Shown: positions 25,268-37,756, numbered from the stretch's first letter. The stretch: DNA of 64,000 nt from Vulcanimicrobiota bacterium (GCA_050250895.1 JBFWNU010000001.1:1480008-1544007); one strand, 5' to 3'. The notes: generated by a model from the sequence alone, not told the origin. Numbers and translations: made by a program.

Positions 25268-25915
25268 ATGTCCGAATCGACCGAGATGTACCTGCTCACT
25301 ATCTATAAGCTCAACGAGCAACATGGTAGAGCCGGCAACACCCTGATGGCCAATTGGCTCGGAGTGAGCACGGCCTCGATCACCGAGATGGTCAAGAAGT
25401 TGGCCGAAAAGGGCCTGGTCGAGCGCAAGGGCCGCGGGCTTTATCTCAAGCCCGCCGGAGAGAAGATCGCGCTGCGAGTCATCCGCAAGCACCGCCTGGC
25501 CGAGCGTTTTCTGACCGACCACCTGGGCATCCCCTGGGACCATGCTCACGACCAGGCGTGTCGCCTCGAACACATACTATCTGATCAGGTGGTCAACGCT
25601 CTGGAAGAATTCCTGGACTATCCGGCCACCTGTCCCCACGGGCATCCCATTCCCGACCGTGACGGGCGCCTGGAGTATACCGAGAGCCCCAGGCTGCACG
25701 ACCACCCCGAAGGGCGAGTGGTCGAGGTGGAACGGGTTAGCGAAGAGTCGGCCGAGGTGCTGCGTTACTTAGAAGAGATCGGGCTCAAGCCGGGCTGTCG
25801 GCTGACCATCGAGAAGGTGGCCCCTTTCGAAGGACCCCTGCTGGTGCGCGTGGGTGAGGCAGCCCTGCCCTTGAGTCGGGAGATTGCTGGAAAGATCTGG
25901 GCCAGGGCAACATGA
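25268..25915 (+). CDS. DtxR/IdeR/MntR-family metal-dependent regulator with FeoA domain
   Basis: EMYL..IYKL, KHRLAERFL, ACRLEH, CPHGHPIP, SH3/FeoA C-terminus. Confidence 0.93.
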   Translation: MSESTEMYLLTIYKLNEQHGRAGNTLMANWLGVSTASITEMVKKLAEKGLVERKGRGLYLKPAGEKIALRVIRKHRLAERFLTDHLGIPWDHAHDQACRLEHILSDQVVNALEEFLDYPATCPHGHPIPDRDGRLEYTESPRLHDHPEGRVVEVERVSEESAEVLRYLEEIGLKPGCRLTIEKVAPFEGPLLVRVGEAALPLSREIAGKIWARAT

Positions 25916-26039
25916 TTGAAACAAAATCTCGCGAGATAGTTACCTGGTTAACATAGTTGTAACTTCAGGCGTTTGGCAACCCCCTCCCCCTTCGATACAC
26001 TAAAGGCAATTAACCGACACGAAAGGGGACTACCTAGAA

Positions 26040-26387
26040 ATGGGTAAAGTCAAAAATCAGCCTAACATCAACATCAACATCGTCAACAGCGGCAACAGCT
26101 TCAACGGCGCCAACGGTGCCAACAGCCTCTTCGGCGGACAGCCCGGCTGCGGTGGTTGCAACGGCGCTCACGGCCCCCACGGTCCTCGCGGCGCTCGCAT
26201 GCGCGCGATGCGCAACCTTCACAAATTGGCCCACGTCCTCAACGGCGGCGGCCCTGGTCACGGACACGGAAACTGCTTCGGCTGCGGCAACCCCGGCTTT
26301 GGCGGCCTGGGCGGTGGCTTCGGTGGCGGCTTCCAGGTGGCCGGCAGCTTCAAAATGGGTGTAGGCGGCTTCCTCGGCCTCGGCTAG
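26040..26387 (+). CDS. Gly/Cys/His-rich small protein, paralog 1
   Basis: GAAAGGGG RBS, biased codon use, own terminator, clear paralogy with 26621-27010. Confidence 0.8.
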   Translation: MGKVKNQPNININIVNSGNSFNGANGANSLFGGQPGCGGCNGAHGPHGPRGARMRAMRNLHKLAHVLNGGGPGHGHGNCFGCGNPGFGGLGGGFGGGFQVAGSFKMGVGGFLGLG

Positions 26388-26417
26388 CTAGAACCCCTCG
26401 ATACCAGCACTGAAAGG

Positions 26418-26447
26418 GCCTCTTGTCTTCGGACAGGGGGCTTTTTT
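26418..26447 (+). terminator. Intrinsic terminator
   Basis: 10-bp stem with cUUCGg loop followed by T6. Confidence 0.85.
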
Positions 26448-26620
26448 GCGTTGGGCAGAGGTTGGTTCGGGCGGCGGAGAGTTTACAGAAAACGAAGAAT
26501 AGTTAACGGTCTGTTTACAATGGCAACCTGGTTGTCACAAAAACGGGTGGGTACCGCCTGGGATTTGGCCTACTATCATCTCAAGCAAGACAAACAAATT
26601 GCACGAAGGAGCTTGGAGTA

Positions 26621-27010
26621 ATGGGCAAAGTTAAACAGCAACCGGGAATCAACATCAACATCATCAACAGCGGCAACAGCTATGGCGCCAACGGCGCTCA
26701 GGGCGCCCAGGGCCAGAACCCCCTGCAGTCCCTGTTCGGTGGACAAGGTGGATGTTGTGGCGGTCCTAAGGGTGCGATGCACCGCCGCATGCATGCGATG
26801 CGTAATCTGGCCAAAGTGGCTGGCGCGCTCGGTGGTGGCGGTGGTTGCCAGAGCTGTATGGGTGCCGGTCACCCGAATTTCGGCGGACTTCACGGAGCTA
26901 TGAACCTGGGTGGCGGCCTGGGCGGCGGTTTCGGCGGCGGTCTCGGCGGTGGCTTCCAGGTAGCCGGTAGTTTCAAAATGGCGGCCGGTGGCTTCCTCGG
27001 AATGGCCTAG
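26621..27010 (+). CDS. Gly/Cys/His-rich small protein, paralog 2
   Basis: AAGGAG/GGAG RBS; shares MGKVK.QP.ININI.NSGNS and GGGFQVAGSFKM..GGFLG with paralog 1. Confidence 0.8.
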   Translation: MGKVKQQPGININIINSGNSYGANGAQGAQGQNPLQSLFGGQGGCCGGPKGAMHRRMHAMRNLAKVAGALGGGGGCQSCMGAGHPNFGGLHGAMNLGGGLGGGFGGGLGGGFQVAGSFKMAAGGFLGMA

Positions 27011-27034
27011 CAACTAGAATTTGATGTGGTCTCG

Positions 27035-27061
27035 AAAGGCCGCCCCAAGGGCGGCCTTTTT
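27035..27061 (+). terminator. Intrinsic terminator
   Basis: aaaggccgccc-caa-gggcggccttt plus T-run. Confidence 0.85.
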
Positions 27062-27104
27062 GCTGTTTGTTTTACCCGGTGGCCGCCGGGGCAAGTAAAC
27101 GGGG

Positions 27105-27413
27105 ATGACTTTTGACGAACCAGACTTTGAAGCCCTGGCCAAGAATTGGCTAAGGGTGGACCCCCGCACCAGCGCTCAGGATGCCCAACTCCAAGCCCGC
27201 ATTCAAGCACGGCTGGCCGCCGCCCTGGCCGAACGTCGGCGGCAGGTGCGAGCCGCCGCCCAGGACGAGGGTGGTGACCTGGTAGTTTCGATCGACCGCA
27301 GCCGCCTCTGTCCCGAGACCGGCCTCGATCTGTCCGCCCTGGCCGAGCTGGCGGGTTTTGTGGAAGAGCTCAGCGAGGGTCCGAAATCCGATTCAGAATC
27401 TGAGGATCAATAG
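27105..27413 (+). CDS. Hypothetical protein
   Basis: 102-aa ORF filling the gap, GGGG upstream of ATG. Confidence 0.5.
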   Translation: MTFDEPDFEALAKNWLRVDPRTSAQDAQLQARIQARLAAALAERRRQVRAAAQDEGGDLVVSIDRSRLCPETGLDLSALAELAGFVEELSEGPKSDSESEDQ

Positions 27414-27505
27414 GGTTTAGACTTTCCTCCGAGGCGACAGAATAATGGATACGCACGTCAGTTCGTGCGAAAGTTTTTGACCACACAGAAAGACGAGGAC
27501 GAGCA

Positions 27506-28438
27506 ATGAGGATCGGAGTGCTGCGAGGCCGGGAAGAATCTTTTCCTGAAGCTATTATCGCCTGTATCAATGCTAGAGACGAGGATGTGACGGCCGAGTT
27601 CGTGCATCTCGGCGGAACGAGCATGGGAGAGGAGTGTCCCTATGACGTGATCATGGACCGCATCTCTCACGAGGTTCCCTACTATCAGGTTTATCTCAAG
27701 CAGGCTTCGATGCAGGGCACTTACGTCGTCAACAATCCCTTCTGGATGAACGTCGACGACAAGTTCTTCGGCTACTCGCTGGCTCAGAAGATGGGAATCC
27801 CGGTTCCCAAGACGGTGGTGCTGCCCAACAAAGAATACATCGCGGACATCAACGCCAAATCACTGCGCAACCTCTGGCCCATCGACTGGAACCTGCGCCT
27901 GCAGGAAGTCGGCCTGCCCTGCATCATGAAGCCGGCCTTCGGCGGCGGCTGGAAGAACGTCACCAAGATCACCTCGGTCGAGCAGGCCATCGAGACCTAT
28001 CAGCAGTCGGGCGACCTGACCATGATGCTGCAAGAGTTCATCGACTGGGATGACTACATCCGCTGCTTGTGCATCGGCCGCAAGTATGCCCGCTCCATTC
28101 GTTATATCCCTCGTCCGATGGGCATGGGAGAATACGTTCAGGACCTGAGCGTGCTCAACCCCGAGCATGCCCGCAAGGCCGAAGAGTACAGCCTCATGTT
28201 CAACGAGGTGCTGGGCTACGACATGAACGCTCTCGAATTCGCTATCAAAGACGACATCGTTTATGCTATCGACATCACCAACTACGTCTGTGACATGGAC
28301 TATAAGTCGCTCAAGGACGCTCACTTTGGCTGGGCCGTCGAGCACATGTCCGACTTCCTCATCGAGATGGCCCGCGAAAAACAGGTCAATCACCCGGCCG
28401 CCAATTGGGCCCGCATTCCCGAGTTCACCCTGGCCTAG
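27506..28438 (+). CDS. RimK/glutathione synthetase-like ATP-grasp ligase
   Basis: DRISH, VNNPFW...DDKFF, VPKT, MKP..GGGWK.V, LQEFI, EFA. Confidence 0.85.
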   Translation: MRIGVLRGREESFPEAIIACINARDEDVTAEFVHLGGTSMGEECPYDVIMDRISHEVPYYQVYLKQASMQGTYVVNNPFWMNVDDKFFGYSLAQKMGIPVPKTVVLPNKEYIADINAKSLRNLWPIDWNLRLQEVGLPCIMKPAFGGGWKNVTKITSVEQAIETYQQSGDLTMMLQEFIDWDDYIRCLCIGRKYARSIRYIPRPMGMGEYVQDLSVLNPEHARKAEEYSLMFNEVLGYDMNALEFAIKDDIVYAIDITNYVCDMDYKSLKDAHFGWAVEHMSDFLIEMAREKQVNHPAANWARIPEFTLA

Positions 28439-29003: not shown

Positions 29004-30560
29004 ATGCCTATGAAGCGATTTTTCCTGGTTCTGGTTTGCGTCTGTGTCATGGTCGGCTGTGGCGGGGGCGGCGGTGGTGGCGGCGGACAAGCGACGGGTG
29101 GTGGAGGTGCCGGAGGCGGTGCAGTGACACCTCCGCCTGTGTTGCTCACCCCCCGAACCTTCACGGTTCCCAACTTTGGGGCCAACCAGAAAGCTGTCTT
29201 CCTCAGTGGCCTGACCCCGCCCACGGATGCGGCGGGCGGAAACCAGACCATCCAGCTGGTCAGCAACAACCGCAGCCTCCCGACCGTGGCCAGGGCAGAA
29301 GAAGCGACGCCGGCCTCGACCTCGAACGAGCCGATCGGCTGCGGGATGGTGCTCTTGCGCGAAGAGCCGGTTCGGCCCACCGACCAGGCCCTGTCGAGAT
29401 CAGGCGTGCTGCCTCGCTTTCAAGAGCTGGCCGAGGGCAGCGTCGAAACCTTCTTTAGCTCGTTTACGGGCCAGACGATCACCACCCAGAAGGTGCTCGA
29501 GCCCAACGAGACCATTCGATGTACGATTTTCGCCGAGGTCGTCTCGGGGGCGCCAGTGGTTTCCAGGGCGCGGGCTCTGCAGATCGCCGAAGCTTTTGAC
29601 ACCGACAATCCGTTCTTGCCGGGACCGGGCGGGATTTACGACCAGGTGAGGGCCATCTATGGCTCGGAGTGGTCGGCCCTGGGAGGGCGCGACGGCGACG
29701 CCAAGATCGTGCTGGTATTCATGCGCTCGGCCAGCATTGGCGGAACCGGCTTGTTCGGCTTCTTCCGTCCCACCGACGCTTCGCTAAAGTCACAGATCGC
29801 CAACAGCAATGAAGGCGAAATCCTCTACCTCAACGCCGACCGCACCCTCGACGAGCAATTGGGCACCATCGCTCACGAGTTCAAGCATATGATCAGCTAC
29901 AATACCAAGGTCATCCGCCAGGGGGCCTTCCCGGCCAACGCTCCCTTCGAGAACCTGAGCGTCGAAGAAGGCCTGGCGGTATTGGCCGAGCAGCTCATCG
30001 GCTATACCATGGAGCGGGGAAACAGCTTTCAGTTCATCGTCTCGCGCAACTATCTACAGGCGCCCCAAAACTTTGATTTCTTCACTTTTTCGACTTCGAA
30101 TGCCGGCTACTACGGGCAGGGGTATCTGTTCTTCCGCTACGTGTTGGAACATTTCGGCCAGCAGACCATCACCAATATCGCGATGTCGACCAGCACTGGT
30201 CTGACCAACCTCAACCAGAATCTGGCCCCCGGGTTTGCCGAAGTGTTCCGGCGCTGGACAGTGGCCAACTATGTCTGCAACCTGGGCGGAACGCCGCCTA
30301 CCATCTACACCTATCCCAGCGGTTTTCGAACTCAGGGCAACATCCCCGCGGTGGGCACTTTGCCCGGGCCGGCGGTCCTTAATGCCCCCAACTCTGGAAC
30401 CTTCAGCACACCAGTCCAGGGCAATTGGTCGGCGGCCTACGTCGGCTATCAGAACGGCAATGGCACCGCCCTGGAGATTACGTTCACTCCGCCCGCCAAC
30501 AGTACTCAGCAGCTTCTCTTCGAGAATCCCACCGGCACCTTCACCAGTCTCCAAAACTAG
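29004..30560 (+). CDS. Lipoprotein zinc metallopeptidase (M30/M6-like)
   Basis: Lipobox VMVGC, GFF..D...SNEGEILYLN, HEFKH, EEGLA. Confidence 0.8.
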   Translation: MPMKRFFLVLVCVCVMVGCGGGGGGGGGQATGGGGAGGGAVTPPPVLLTPRTFTVPNFGANQKAVFLSGLTPPTDAAGGNQTIQLVSNNRSLPTVARAEEATPASTSNEPIGCGMVLLREEPVRPTDQALSRSGVLPRFQELAEGSVETFFSSFTGQTITTQKVLEPNETIRCTIFAEVVSGAPVVSRARALQIAEAFDTDNPFLPGPGGIYDQVRAIYGSEWSALGGRDGDAKIVLVFMRSASIGGTGLFGFFRPTDASLKSQIANSNEGEILYLNADRTLDEQLGTIAHEFKHMISYNTKVIRQGAFPANAPFENLSVEEGLAVLAEQLIGYTMERGNSFQFIVSRNYLQAPQNFDFFTFSTSNAGYYGQGYLFFRYVLEHFGQQTITNIAMSTSTGLTNLNQNLAPGFAEVFRRWTVANYVCNLGGTPPTIYTYPSGFRTQGNIPAVGTLPGPAVLNAPNSGTFSTPVQGNWSAAYVGYQNGNGTALEITFTPPANSTQQLLFENPTGTFTSLQN

Positions 30561-33970: not shown

Positions 33971-36900
33971 TTAGCGGGTCCCGGCCTTGAGCAGGTCGAC
34001 CACGTAACGGCCCAGCAGCTTGGTCTGAGCCGTCGAGAGTTCCACGAACTGAACGCTGTGATGCCAGCCGTGTTCGGGATGCTCGCGCGATTGCAGCACC
34101 TCGCAGAGCACATCCAGACCCTCGTGGATTCCGAAAGACTCGACGCTGAGGGTGATGCGATCTCCGGGCGAGAAGGCTTGCTGGCAACCCAGCAGGGCTC
34201 CACCCAGTCCGAGGTCGAGACAGGTTCCAGCCACCTTGCTCCCATCGGGCAGGACCAGATCCACCGCCAGATTGGCTGGGGCACGAGTGAATTTGCGCTG
34301 ATTGAAGACCTTGGATTGCATGCCCACTTTGTTGAGCAGCGAGACGACCCAACTGCGGCCGAGCACCTCGGGAGATTCGCTAAACTGCAATCCGGCTTCC
34401 ATCACGCCGGCGTCGGACACCTTGAACCAGACCACCGTGGCGGCCACGCGGTCGTCGGGGTCGTCTTCGCCCCGATAGGGGTTGCTGATGTGCAGGGTCT
34501 GGCCGCGGTTGACCTGGCGCGAAACCACCAGGCGCATACCACCCAGGCTGATGTCCTTGATGGTGGCGTGAAAAATCTGGTTGCCGAAGAAGCAGTTGAC
34601 GTCGTACTCGCAGGAGAGGCGGACCAGACGACGGCGCTCCTGAGGGCTAGCGCCGGGGGAGGCGACGGGAGTGGCCACTCCATCCTTGATGGCCGATAAG
34701 ATACCCTCGCGGGTGCCTCCATCGCCTTGTTCCTGCACGCTTTTGAGTGCCTCGAGAATAGTCGAGCGATACTCGTCGGGAGGCTGCTGCAGTCGCGGCA
34801 CCTCGTTGTCGACGGGGGCCAGTAGCTCTTCTTTCGAAGGCTCCGGCTCTTCTTCAGGCGCTTCGCTCTCGGCCTCTTCTTCGACGGGCTCGGGGACCAG
34901 TTCCTCAAGGTCGGCTACGGCCTCGACCTCGGGAGCCGGGCCGGGGGCCTCGAACAGGGCGTCTCCCAGATCGAGTGTGGCGGGCCCGGCAAACAAGGCG
35001 TCTTGAGTGTCAGCGGGACCCTGCAACAGGGCGGGGCCCTCGAGCTGAGCCACGTCACTCTCTGGGACCCCTTGAAGGGTTTCTTCGGCCTCGGGAGCTA
35101 CCAGGTCGGCACGCGGTTGCTCCACCTCTGGGGCCGGGGCTTCCTGCTCGGACTCCTCGGCTACTACTTCGACGGGCTCGGCACCCTCGTCCTCGAGAGC
35201 CAGCTCGTCTTCACCAGAGTCCTCGACACCGTCGTCTTCTAGCGCGAGTTCGTCGTCCTCGGAGTCTTCGACCGCGTCGTCCTCCAGGGCCACTTCGTCT
35301 TCTTCAGAGTCCTCGACGTCGTCGTCTTCTAGCGCGAGTTCGTCTTCCTCGGAGTCTTCGACGGCGTCGTCCTCTAAGGCAAGCTCTTCTTCCTCAGAAT
35401 CCTCCAGGTCTTCATCCTCGAGGGCAAGTTCATCCTCTTCAGCTTCTTCGCCATGCACTTCGGCCTCGAGGTCCGCGTCAAGCACGAGGTCATCTTCTTC
35501 GAGTTCGAGTTCTTCACCGATCTCGTCGATGTCTTCCAGGGCGAGCTCTTCTTCGATAGAAGCCTCATCCTCGGGCTCCAGAGCCAGCTCTTCGTCGGTG
35601 AGGGCCAGTTCCTCGTCTTCTAGCTCGAGCTCTTCGTCAAGACCCAAATCCTCTTCGAGTTCGGCTTCTTCGAGGGCCAACTCGTCTTCCAGACCCAGTT
35701 CCTCGTCCTCGAGGTCGAGTTCGTCGTCTTCCAGCGCAAGCTCTTCGTCTTCCAGCCCGAGTTCGTCCTCGATGGAAGCTTCCTCTTCGGGCCCGAGGGC
35801 GAGTTCCTCGTCCTCCAGGTCGAGTTCCTCGTCTTCAGGAGCGAGTTCGTCTTCGGCCGACTCTTCGCCGTCGTCTTCCAGGTCGAGGCTCTCGTCTTCA
35901 AGAACCAATTCGTCCTCGACGGGCGCTTCTTCGGCGACTTCGTCTTCGAGGTCAAGCTCTTCGTCCTCGAGGTCAAGCTCGTCGTCTTCGAGGGCCAGCT
36001 CGTCTTCGCCGGACTCTTCGTCTTCGAGGTCGAGTTCTTCGTCCTCGAGAGCCAGCTCGTCTTCGCCAGATTCTTCTTCGGCTTCTTCGTCCTCAAGGTC
36101 GAGTTCTTCGCCTTCGAGGGCCAGCTCGTCTTCGCCGGACTCTTCGTCTTCGAGGTCGAGTTCTTCGTCCTCGAGGGCCAGCTCGTCGTCGCCAGATTCT
36201 TCCTCGACTTCTTCGTCCTCAAGGTCGAGTTCTTCGTCTTCGAGGGCCAGCTCATCTTCCCCAGGCTCTGCGGGCGCCTCGGCCACCTCGACCTCGAGGT
36301 CCAGTTCCTCGTCTTCGAGATCGAGCTCTTCGTCCTCGAGGTCCAGTTCTTCTTCGGGCGATTCTTCTTCAGCTTCGGCGACCTCCAGCTGGGCCCCGAT
36401 GGCGTCGATGTCTTCGAGTTCAAGCTCCGCGGGGGCCGGCTCCGGCTCCCCCGATTCCTCTTCGTCCTCGAGATCGAGTTCGTCTTCTTCGACCTCTTCG
36501 TCTTCTAGAGCTAGCTCGTCTTCCTCAGACTCCTCGACCTCTTCGTCCTCGAGGTCGAGTTCTTCGTCCTCAGACTCCTCTTCGACCTCGTCGTGCTCGA
36601 GAGCCAGTTCCTCTTCCTCGGACTCCTCGTCCTCGAGAGCTTCCTCGTCTTCCTCGACATCATCGTCTTCGAGGCCAAGTGCATCTGCCTCGGACTCTTC
36701 CTCGACGTCATCTTCTTCAAGGTCTAGCTCTTCATCGTCTTCTTCCTCTTCCTCGGACTCCTCGACATCGTCATCCTCGAGGTCGAGGTCGTCTTCGTCT
36801 TCTTCTAGTTCGTCCAGCTCGAGTTGGGGGATATCCAGCAGGGTCGGTTCGGGCCGTTCTTCGCGCGTCCGAAAGGCGATCTGGTCGAGAGGCTCGTCGT

Positions 36901-37756
36901 AATCGTCCTCCTCCTCGTCCTCTTCGTCTTCGGCCTCGTCGTCGTACTCTTCATCTTCGTCTTCGTCTTCATCGTACTCTTCATCTTCGTCTTCGTCTTC
37001 GTCTTCGGCCTCGACCTCGTCGTCGTCTTCCTCGAAGTCTTCGTCTTCCTCGAAGTCTTCGTCTTCCTCGAAGTCTTCGTCTTCCTCGTAATCTTCGTCT
37101 TCCTCAACGTCGTCTTCGAAAAGCTCCTCGCTGTCGAAGTATTGCTCGAAGTCGTCTGGCTCCTGGTATTCTTCGACTTCTTCGAACGAGTCATAGCGCT
37201 CGAGCGACTCGAAACGGCGAAAGTGGCGTTCGATCGACTCCATCTCGTCAGGGCCGCGCTCGAAGGAGGTGTAGTAGAGGGGATCCTCGATGCCGACGCC
37301 ACGGAAGTAGTCTCGGAATGAGGGCAGCGGCTCCTGATCGTCGGGTTCGAAACGGCGGCGGCCGCGCCCGCTCGGGGCCGGTCCGCGGGTGGAAAAGATC
37401 TGGGGCATTTCGACCAACCCGGCCAGCAAGCCCATCAAGCGGGCGCGCTCTTCTTCCGCTTCCCAGATCATTTGCTGGATCAGGCGGGTAGATTTGCCGC
37501 TCTCCTGGCGTTCGGAGAGGTCGGTGCGCAGTTTACGCAGGATCGATTCTACGTCAGAGAGCCGGTCGCGGAGGTTCTCGAGGCGCAGAATGGCAAGACG
37601 GTCACTGGCGAAGTCAATAAGACCCTTCAGTTCCCGCTCTTCGTTCTCCAAGCCGGGCGCCGGCCGGTCTTCCTGGCTTTCTATCGCCAGTTCTTCAAAG
37701 ACCTCAGCCTGCTTCCTCAGCCAGGACGAAACTCTTGATGAATCGAACTCTGGCAT
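33971..37756 (-). CDS. Giant acidic-repeat protein with N-terminal helical domain and C-terminal tandem PilZ
   Basis: 1261 aa; E/D/L repeats; RRRLVR...DISLGG and RKFTR...DLGLGG. Confidence 0.85.
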   Translation of the reverse strand: MPEFDSSRVSSWLRKQAEVFEELAIESQEDRPAPGLENEERELKGLIDFASDRLAILRLENLRDRLSDVESILRKLRTDLSERQESGKSTRLIQQMIWEAEEERARLMGLLAGLVEMPQIFSTRGPAPSGRGRRRFEPDDQEPLPSFRDYFRGVGIEDPLYYTSFERGPDEMESIERHFRRFESLERYDSFEEVEEYQEPDDFEQYFDSEELFEDDVEEDEDYEEDEDFEEDEDFEEDEDFEEDDDEVEAEDEDEDEDEEYDEDEDEDEEYDDEAEDEEDEEEDDYDEPLDQIAFRTREERPEPTLLDIPQLELDELEEDEDDLDLEDDDVEESEEEEEDDEELDLEEDDVEEESEADALGLEDDDVEEDEEALEDEESEEEELALEHDEVEEESEDEELDLEDEEVEESEEDELALEDEEVEEDELDLEDEEESGEPEPAPAELELEDIDAIGAQLEVAEAEEESPEEELDLEDEELDLEDEELDLEVEVAEAPAEPGEDELALEDEELDLEDEEVEEESGDDELALEDEELDLEDEESGEDELALEGEELDLEDEEAEEESGEDELALEDEELDLEDEESGEDELALEDDELDLEDEELDLEDEVAEEAPVEDELVLEDESLDLEDDGEESAEDELAPEDEELDLEDEELALGPEEEASIEDELGLEDEELALEDDELDLEDEELGLEDELALEEAELEEDLGLDEELELEDEELALTDEELALEPEDEASIEEELALEDIDEIGEELELEEDDLVLDADLEAEVHGEEAEEDELALEDEDLEDSEEEELALEDDAVEDSEEDELALEDDDVEDSEEDEVALEDDAVEDSEDDELALEDDGVEDSGEDELALEDEGAEPVEVVAEESEQEAPAPEVEQPRADLVAPEAEETLQGVPESDVAQLEGPALLQGPADTQDALFAGPATLDLGDALFEAPGPAPEVEAVADLEELVPEPVEEEAESEAPEEEPEPSKEELLAPVDNEVPRLQQPPDEYRSTILEALKSVQEQGDGGTREGILSAIKDGVATPVASPGASPQERRRLVRLSCEYDVNCFFGNQIFHATIKDISLGGMRLVVSRQVNRGQTLHISNPYRGEDDPDDRVAATVVWFKVSDAGVMEAGLQFSESPEVLGRSWVVSLLNKVGMQSKVFNQRKFTRAPANLAVDLVLPDGSKVAGTCLDLGLGGALLGCQQAFSPGDRITLSVESFGIHEGLDVLCEVLQSREHPEHGWHHSVQFVELSTAQTKLLGRYVVDLLKAGTR
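34800..37190 (-). repeat. Coding acidic repeat tract (ELALEDEELDLEDEE-like units)
   Basis: Degenerate repeats; perfect 18-nt tandem units (EEDEDF) near 37024-37088. Confidence 0.85.

Follow-up and report, generated by a model that had tools for sequence, protein, structure and literature searches.

In Escherichia coli, the small protein MntS is induced at low manganese (PMC4361602), and two MntR sites overlap the mntS promoter (PMC11882963). In Bacillus subtilis, MntR activates mneP through four weak sites that lie upstream of the -35 element; the mneP/mneS array spans ~80 base pairs (bp), upstream of and into -35, and its half-site is GGAAAC/GTTTCC (PMC11882963). In the Alphaproteobacteria, CtrA boxes of the form TTAA-N7-TTAAC control flagellar genes (PMC3692519). 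Here we describe a locus in the DNA of a Vulcanimicrobiota bacterium (GCA_050250895.1 JBFWNU010000001.1:1480008-1544007, a stretch of 64,000 nucleotides (nt) that we call the window and number from its first letter) at which a gene for a DtxR-family regulator is followed by two paralogous genes for small, glycine-rich proteins, each preceded by a phased array of hexamers. We conclude that the two genes are genuine and belong to an orphan family, and we tentatively read their products as disordered proteins of a motility-linked regulon.

Each of the described systems resembles this locus in part. As with MntS, a small protein is tied to a DtxR-family regulator, but MntS has no sequence likeness to the family, and the arrays here lie upstream of -35, with no operator over the promoter. 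MntS is also only ~42 amino acids (aa) long and is not glycine-rich. The B. subtilis half-site resembles the GGTAAC/GTTTAC found here; however, the sites described for mneP/mneS are 18-bp inverted repeats 19 bp apart, whereas the hexamers here are 9 to 11 bp apart and are best read as direct repeats, and the genes downstream of the arrays here are not metal exporters. CtrA offers TTAAC-like half-sites in 11-bp phase and the control of flagellar genes, but it belongs to another phylum and there are three to six units per array here, so that the likeness is one of pattern only. On the protein side, Gly, Asn, Gln and Phe abound, and acidic residues are nearly absent, in the cohesive phenylalanine-glycine (FG) domains of nucleoporins and in prion-like low-complexity domains. 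The family shares this composition, carries one to four FG dipeptides per protein and is predicted to be disordered, but there is no homology, and its members are very short bacterial proteins that stand alone, with paired Cys and conserved ends. Curli CsgA and the chaplins are likewise small, but they have Sec signals and assembly genes of their own; the proteins described here are similarly paralogous, have strand-prone ends and possibly self-assemble, yet we saw no Sec signal or assembly genes and found no Pfam match.

The two open reading frames (ORFs) lie on the + strand at 26040..26387 (paralogue 1, 115 aa) and 26621..27010 (paralogue 2, 129 aa), as a preliminary description made from the sequence had placed them, and they are paralogous (49% identity, 65/133 positions, BLASTP E value 3e-12). 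The blocks which that description had picked out as conserved (MGKVK.QP.ININI.NSGNS, SLFGGQ.GC, RM.AMRNL, CxxC and GGGFQVAGSFKM..GGFLG) are all present, and its statement that the proteins lack acidic residues is borne out by their composition: both contain no Asp or Glu, 31 to 32% Gly and four Cys each, with isoelectric points (pI) of 10.1 to 10.5. Inspection by eye found no N-terminal hydrophobic segment in either protein. The description had also given each ORF a ribosome-binding site (RBS) and its own terminator, and both features are there. Purine-rich, RBS-like stretches stand 5' of both ATGs, and intrinsic terminators follow on the + strand at 26413..26450 (paralogue 1; folding free energy, dG, -23.7 kcal/mol, z -5.12; also found by a consensus scan) and at 27034..27068 (paralogue 2; a 12-bp stem with 8 GC pairs, dG -23.3 kcal/mol, z -3.79); none of 200 shuffles folded as well as these hairpins with their U-runs. 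A consensus scan also found a promoter-like TTGGCA-17-TACACT 5' of paralogue 1 at 25973..26001 (+), with the -10 at 25996-26001 and an RNA-library contig start at 26022. For paralogue 2, the putative -10 is TACTAT at 26571..26576 (+), which aligns with the TAnAnT of the other copies and precedes RNA-library contig starts at 26600-26603. RBS, promoter and terminator are kept in all three copies in the genome, the third of which is described below. Each gene is its own transcription unit, giving three independent units.

Several lines of evidence bear on whether these ORFs are translated. Between the two paralogues, nonsynonymous divergence (dN) is 0.246 and synonymous divergence (dS) is 1.54, a dN/dS ratio of ~0.16. 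We also compared the locus with a relative roughly 93% identical to it (range 90 to 95%), known from the contigs of one DNA run and of three metatranscriptome runs, the latter all belonging to a single study. Codon position 3 holds 19 of the 21 listed differences from this relative in paralogue 1 and 15 of the 19 in paralogue 2, and the only indel within a gene spans 3 nt, in frame. RNA-library contigs of 379 to 383 nt, from all three runs, span 26022..26405, that is, from just past the predicted -10 of paralogue 1 to just short of its terminator, and others of 296 to 349 nt span 26600..26934/26949 in paralogue 2; a further RNA-library contig holds the N-terminal codons of a relative of the third paralogue. 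The stretches 26432-26585 and 26971-27432 are covered by the DNA run but by no RNA-library contig. Mean depths of the RNA contigs were 10 to 14.5 for paralogue 1 and 2.7 to 5 for dtxR, and as contig means they were not used to rank expression. The share of sampled words found in 10 sequencing runs was small (0.05 to 0.13), and no habitat conclusion was drawn from it. Because of the low dN/dS, the third-position bias and the gene-sized contigs in RNA libraries, we concluded that both ORFs are genuine protein-coding genes. That they are instead chance frames in GC-rich DNA, without translation, is extremely unlikely. Overlapping frames are indeed open in other frames and antisense, for example at 26576..27013 (-), but the substitution pattern lends these no support, whereas the proposed frames show the third-position bias and the in-frame indel, their dN/dS, an RBS, promoter and terminator conserved in all three copies and conservation at the protein level over 16 sequences with 20 to 70% identity.

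The third paralogue (G000:C6:570519-570854, 112 aa) has its own terminator (dG -19.3 kcal/mol), and no fourth copy emerged when a profile was run locally against the genome's 106,610 open frames of at least 50 aa. The preliminary description had left room for homologs in a known family, and none appeared: no family in Pfam or NCBIfam was matched by any of the three paralogues, no PDB chain was matched at E <= 1 by a profile of 16 sequences, and the ESM Atlas gave no usable match. Rfam matches at the locus were all below threshold and all fell on the terminator. Against 1.84 billion representative proteins, the three-paralogue profile gave five matches at E <= 0.001, of which three were true relatives and two unrelated repeat proteins. 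A wider profile found six proteins in a collection of 5.8 billion; two of the six share a source whose longest contig is 2488 bp and probably form a tandem pair like that in the window. Divergent members in a second genus were found by anchoring on the conserved 102-aa ORF downstream. Among 44 genomes of the class, 11 matched the 16-sequence profile (2/2 of the window's genus, 8/8 of the second genus and one weak match elsewhere), as did none of the six genomes of a third genus of the same family; in a sample of 401 genomes of the phylum, matches were confined to the window's family. The known holders are 10 genomes from two genera of the class Candidatus Xenobia (Eremiobacterota/Vulcanimicrobiota), together with the six proteins from sequence collections. 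Other searches added nothing. A word-index search with a single sequence returned no candidate at E <= 1 among 2080; a single-protein search of 61 relatives gave matches only at E 0.002 to 0.009, two of three with internal stops, which we judged spurious; and a pattern scan from the first alignment picked up 597 stretches in genome contigs and 590 in metagenome contigs, of which tblastn confirmed none. Among the papers listed by a search for Xenobia or Eremiobacterota, none describes the family, to judge by title or abstract, and a literature search on glycine-rich, disordered small proteins secreted by flagellar type III export found nothing relevant among the papers listed. The family is an orphan, lineage-restricted and very rare. 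To our knowledge, the class has no cultured member.

Alignment of the 16 sequences showed where conservation lies. Only NPxFG and a terminal L-G are invariant, with the Phe before the terminal LG nearly so; (F)LG stands at or near the carboxyl end, and in 10 of the 16 the chain ends exactly at FLG. The N terminus is a strand-like segment of alternating hydrophobic residues and Asn (ININIINSGN, LNLNLNFG), followed by a Gly/Pro/Gln linker that holds one Cys. Next comes a central amphipathic helix, which reads RMRAMRNLHKLAHVL or, in members from the second genus, MMRMMQMMMQMMSQMM or LIRKFTQLLSRLL; usually CxxC or CC pairs succeed it, before NPGFG and an alternating, strand-like segment that ends in GFLG. 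The composition is rich in Gly, Asn and Phe. Thirteen of the 16 members are basic (pI 8.8 to 11.6), with four to eight Cys and zero to two acidic residues. The other three, which are orthologues from the same locus, are 70 to 77 aa long and have no Cys, no His and three to five acidic residues (pI 4.5 to 8.3; two are acidic, at 4.5 and 4.7); they still keep NPGFG and ...SFLG or ...NFLG. AlphaFold2 with the family alignment gave a mean predicted local distance difference test score (pLDDT) of 48.8 and a sole helix at residues 57-70. Given this low score and single helix, the chain is probably mostly disordered apart from one amphipathic helix, and the composition together with the model fits a disordered, possibly self-associating protein. 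We also considered encapsulin cargo loaded through a C-terminal targeting peptide, an idea we rejected because there is no shell gene: PF04454 had no match in the genome, which is 99.6% complete, and did match in control genomes. Three bacterial microcompartment shell genes are present in the genome, but elsewhere.

One DNA feature, a run of GTTAAC-like hexamers, is conserved 5' of all copies and orthologues examined. In front of paralogue 1 it reads AGTTAC-N3-GTTAAC-N5-TGTAAC (25938..25963, +) and is kept in the paralogues and orthologues; in front of paralogue 2 it reads GTTAAC-N5-GTTTAC-N3-GGCAAC-N5-TGTCAC (26502..26538, +); both match a pattern found genome-wide. The hexamers vary among GTTAAC, GTTTAC, GGTAAC, TGTAAC, TGTCAC and GGCAAC, number at least three, are separated by spacers of 3 to 5 nt with a period of 9 to 11 bp, and end ~30 nt before a TAnAnT -10. 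The -10 is good and the -35 regions are weak or variable in the family promoters, which would fit dependence on an activator, and because the hexamers are phased at 9 to 11 bp, they suggest an activator bound on one face of the helix. A strict three-unit pattern occurred at 16 sites in the genome and at none in the reversed genome, and a looser one at 81 and 7, respectively; merging left 50 looser-pattern sites, and removal of coding GGYAACGCN repeats left 37. Those repeats are coding runs of GGYAACGCNGGYAAC (Gly-Asn-Ala-type repeats, at G000:C1:3741828-3743178 and C5:432666-432711), which match the pattern by chance. At 14 of 28 re-examined sites, the next same-strand ORF starts 82 to 123 nt from the start of the array. 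A 14-bp motif, AACNNNGTTGTMAC, was also tried; three of its seven occurrences in the genome are at the paralogues and the other four were uninformative.

The genes preceded by such arrays include a 271-aa member of the FlgE/F/G family, between fliK and fliM in a flagellar operon. This array, in front of a hook/rod gene, is kept in nine genomes of the two genera, with a variant in the third genus, and a further array lies between flgB and a divergent ORF. Also preceded by arrays are two single-domain PilZ genes, a subtilase, a peptidoglycan-binding protein and many ORFs without a Pfam family, eight of which are at most 180 aa long and Gly-rich, several with CxxC. None of the other Gly-rich ORFs has homology to the family that a local profile search could detect. 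Low-complexity ORFs with arrays (87 to 178 aa, 18 to 51% Gly) stand at G000:C1:1743925 (+), C1:2056118 (-), C4:347316 (-), C1:80576 (+), C1:1600698 (+) and C1:1893014 (-); four of them have a CxxC or CxxxxC pair, one being 103 aa long with 51% Gly and seven Cys. Among 42 flanking ORFs scanned, no recognizable metal-homeostasis gene lay directly downstream of an array, and one divergent MFS_3-type transporter was the sole possible link to metals.

As a side observation, the flagellar operon looks complete (G000:C1:1462000-1476500, ending ~3.6 kb before the start of the window), with flgB, flgC, a fliE-like gene, fliF, fliI, a fliJ-like gene, an SLT-domain gene, fliK, the FlgE/F/G-family gene, fliM, fliN and fliP/Q/R-like genes; its internal GTTAAC-array promoter follows fliK and precedes the hook/rod-family gene. 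The flagellin gene near G000:C1 571330 differs from the array promoters: ~100 to 170 nt before its start its upstream region carries GGTTAC-N15-GCCGATAA, the latter in a -10 region that we take to be sigma-28-like. PilZ-domain genes are numerous (in the window, at 1110-1856 and 33971-37756), GGDEF response-regulator genes are divergent from the arrays at C6:398939 and C8:187314, and these PilZ and GGDEF genes hint at a link between the array regulon and cyclic di-GMP (c-di-GMP).

As the preliminary description had reported, a DtxR-type regulator gene lies directly upstream of paralogue 1. This gene (25268..25915, +, 215 aa) matches the Pfam domains Fe_dep_repress (1.5e-15), Fe_dep_repr_C (6.9e-34) and FeoA (2.1e-18), and the NCBIfam models MntR-Thermus and DtxR-Actino below their cut-offs. 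In the second genus, dtxR stands directly before the family member in seven genomes and with one 317-aa ORF between them in the eighth, and a gene for an iron-chelate-type ATP-binding cassette (ABC) ATPase stands just before dtxR. In the other genome of the window's genus, a 2-kb contig holds, in this order, a NUDIX gene, dtxR and a small gene truncated at the contig's edge, and that genome's other family copy comes after a Peripla_BP-like gene. Neither the third paralogue nor either of two extra paralogues of the second genus is near dtxR. We also searched for the 19-bp DtxR/IdeR operator with the consensus TWAGGTWAGSCTWACCTWA and found no site with three or fewer mismatches in the whole genome; the best matches at the two window promoters had 7 and 8 mismatches. 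A palindrome, TTAGGTAAGATAAACCTAG, with four mismatches to this consensus lies just past the -10 in the small-gene leader of one orthologue genome (G009); a weaker version occurs in another (G003), and it is absent from the window's genes.

How these findings are to be read depends largely on the arrays and on the regulator gene. Because the same arrays precede the hook/rod gene, the PilZ, subtilase and peptidoglycan-binding genes and orphan Gly-rich genes, we provisionally place the family in a regulon linked to motility or lifestyle, and not among DtxR-repressed metal proteins. The products would then be disordered proteins that associate with themselves or are exported, with Cys as accessory cross-linking or metal sites, an account that we offer tentatively. 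On this account an activator would bind the phased arrays on one face of the helix and switch the genes on; the proteins would self-associate or dock through their conserved terminal motifs and FG-type contacts, the Cys pairs would add disulfide or metal cross-links, and the site of action would be either a cohesive phase inside the cell or the outside, after Sec-independent export. A number of points weigh against this account. Self-association, export and cellular location are conjectural. The third genus (six genomes) has the hook gene and no detectable family member, and because of this the family is not needed for flagella. The array motif was derived from these same promoters, so that regulon membership goes by motif, and the expression support consists of assembled contigs from a single study, in which carry-over of DNA is possible. 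A dtxR gene stands 5' of a family member in 10 of the 10 holder genomes, and since the linkage persists in the same-genus genome although the flanks there differ, it argues for a functional tie. Because MntR of B. subtilis activates through four weak sites with a similar half-site, the arrays could also be DtxR sites.

The latter points lead to the alternative that these are metal-responsive small proteins under the adjoining DtxR/MntR-type regulator, which would bind the hexamer arrays cooperatively and activate or repress according to the Mn or Fe supply, while the Cys-, His- and Met-rich products would buffer, chaperone or sequester metal. We consider this a live rival, only slightly less probable than our own reading. 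In its favor, besides the constant dtxR neighbor and the iron-chelate-type ATPase gene of the second genus, are the four to eight Cys, arranged as CxxC or CC, of 13 of the 16 members, the His runs or Met-rich helix (such as MMRMMQMMMQMM) of some, and two precedents in the passages cited, namely activation from weak MntR arrays (PMC11882963) and control of the small protein MntS by MntR in E. coli (PMC4361602). Set against these, however, are the three same-locus orthologues without Cys or His, the lack of close matches to the operator consensus, the scan of 42 flanking ORFs, in which none directly downstream of an array is a metal transporter, and the paralogues that lie away from dtxR; moreover, gene order shared by two closely related genera may simply be inherited. 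The preliminary description had offered metal binding as a possible property of these proteins; as one that defines the family it is unlikely, since none of the invariant residues (NPxFG and the C-terminal LG) is a metal ligand, and no Cys/His cluster of the metallothionein kind, and indeed no Cys column, is conserved throughout the family. An alternative closer to our own reading, and one that we think improbable, is that the proteins are substrates of flagellar type III export, or secreted factors co-expressed with the flagellum, which the cell would produce along with the hook and export unfolded, independently of Sec, to act outside it as matrix, adhesive or antimicrobial peptides. A promoter element is common to the family and to a flagellar gene, as judged by the shared motif: such arrays stand before the hook/rod-family gene within its operon and in the region upstream of flgB. 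PilZ genes carry the motif as well, and the proteins are small, probably unfolded and without an obvious Sec signal. Yet export is a pure inference, no chaperone or export signal was identified, the flagellin gene has a different promoter, with GCCGATAA in its -10 region, and no dependence is seen in the genus that has the hook gene and lacks the family. The suggestion in the preliminary description of a modified-peptide precursor fared worse. That the proteins give rise to a ribosomally synthesized, modified peptide, or to a bacteriocin or microcin rich in glycine, is very unlikely: a conserved N terminus, a variable Cys/Gly-rich middle, several paralogues and a RimK-family ATP-grasp gene two genes downstream would suit such a role, but no maturation, export or immunity genes lie within ~5 kb, no maturation enzyme is a conserved neighbor, the third and further paralogues are in unrelated contexts, the ATP-grasp gene is conserved far past the range of the family (76 loci), the most conserved part is the extreme C terminus and not a leader, and a double-glycine leader is absent by eye. 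Readings other than those named here share a small remainder of the weight. The boldest form of the motility-linked reading, for which we see little chance, is a Xenobia lifestyle regulon in which CtrA-like GTTAAC arrays would drive the hook and PilZ genes together with orphan, acid-free, Gly/Phe-rich disordered proteins that would exit independently of Sec, possibly by way of the flagellar export gate, and build a cohesive, disulfide-cross-linked, FG-type material.

Downstream of the pair, also on the + strand, lie an acidic ORF of no known family (27105..27413, 102 aa), for which 21 of 40 genomes in the order have a homologue, some of them without the small family, and a distant RimK-family ATP-grasp ORF (27506..28438, 310 aa; TIGR00768 E 1.8e-11, below the cut-off), whose 76 confirmed loci reach metagenome-assembled genomes labelled Dormibacterota or Chloroflexi at 42 to 49% identity. 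Both are probably syntenic neighbors and not part of the system; together (27105-28438) they recall carrier-protein/ligase pairs, an analogy only. Further on, at 29004-30560, is a 518-aa ORF with a lipoprotein-like N terminus, a run of ~25 Gly/Ala and an HEFKH (HExxH) motif, for which Pfam gave only a weak match to Peptidase_M78 (E 0.008). Many of the genes that we looked at in this 9.5-Mb genome are unannotated.

Taken together, these results present the family as a clear-cut case of a conserved small protein, found in RNA libraries yet recognized by no family library. Glycine-rich, disordered small proteins are a broad kind already known, and more may be gained from the promoter-array regulon: the promoter points to an undescribed regulatory code, in which phased hexamer arrays are common to a flagellar gene, c-di-GMP receptor genes and many low-complexity orphan genes. 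If the adjoining DtxR regulator controls the family, a new kind of metal-responsive small protein would be in hand. If the arrays define a regulon of motility or lifestyle, co-regulated genes could be predicted from them throughout the class, and self-association of the proteins, if it occurs, would offer a very small, tractable bacterial model of FG-type or prion-like cohesion. Should they also form the cross-linked, FG-type material envisaged above, that material would be a bacterial counterpart of FG hydrogels.

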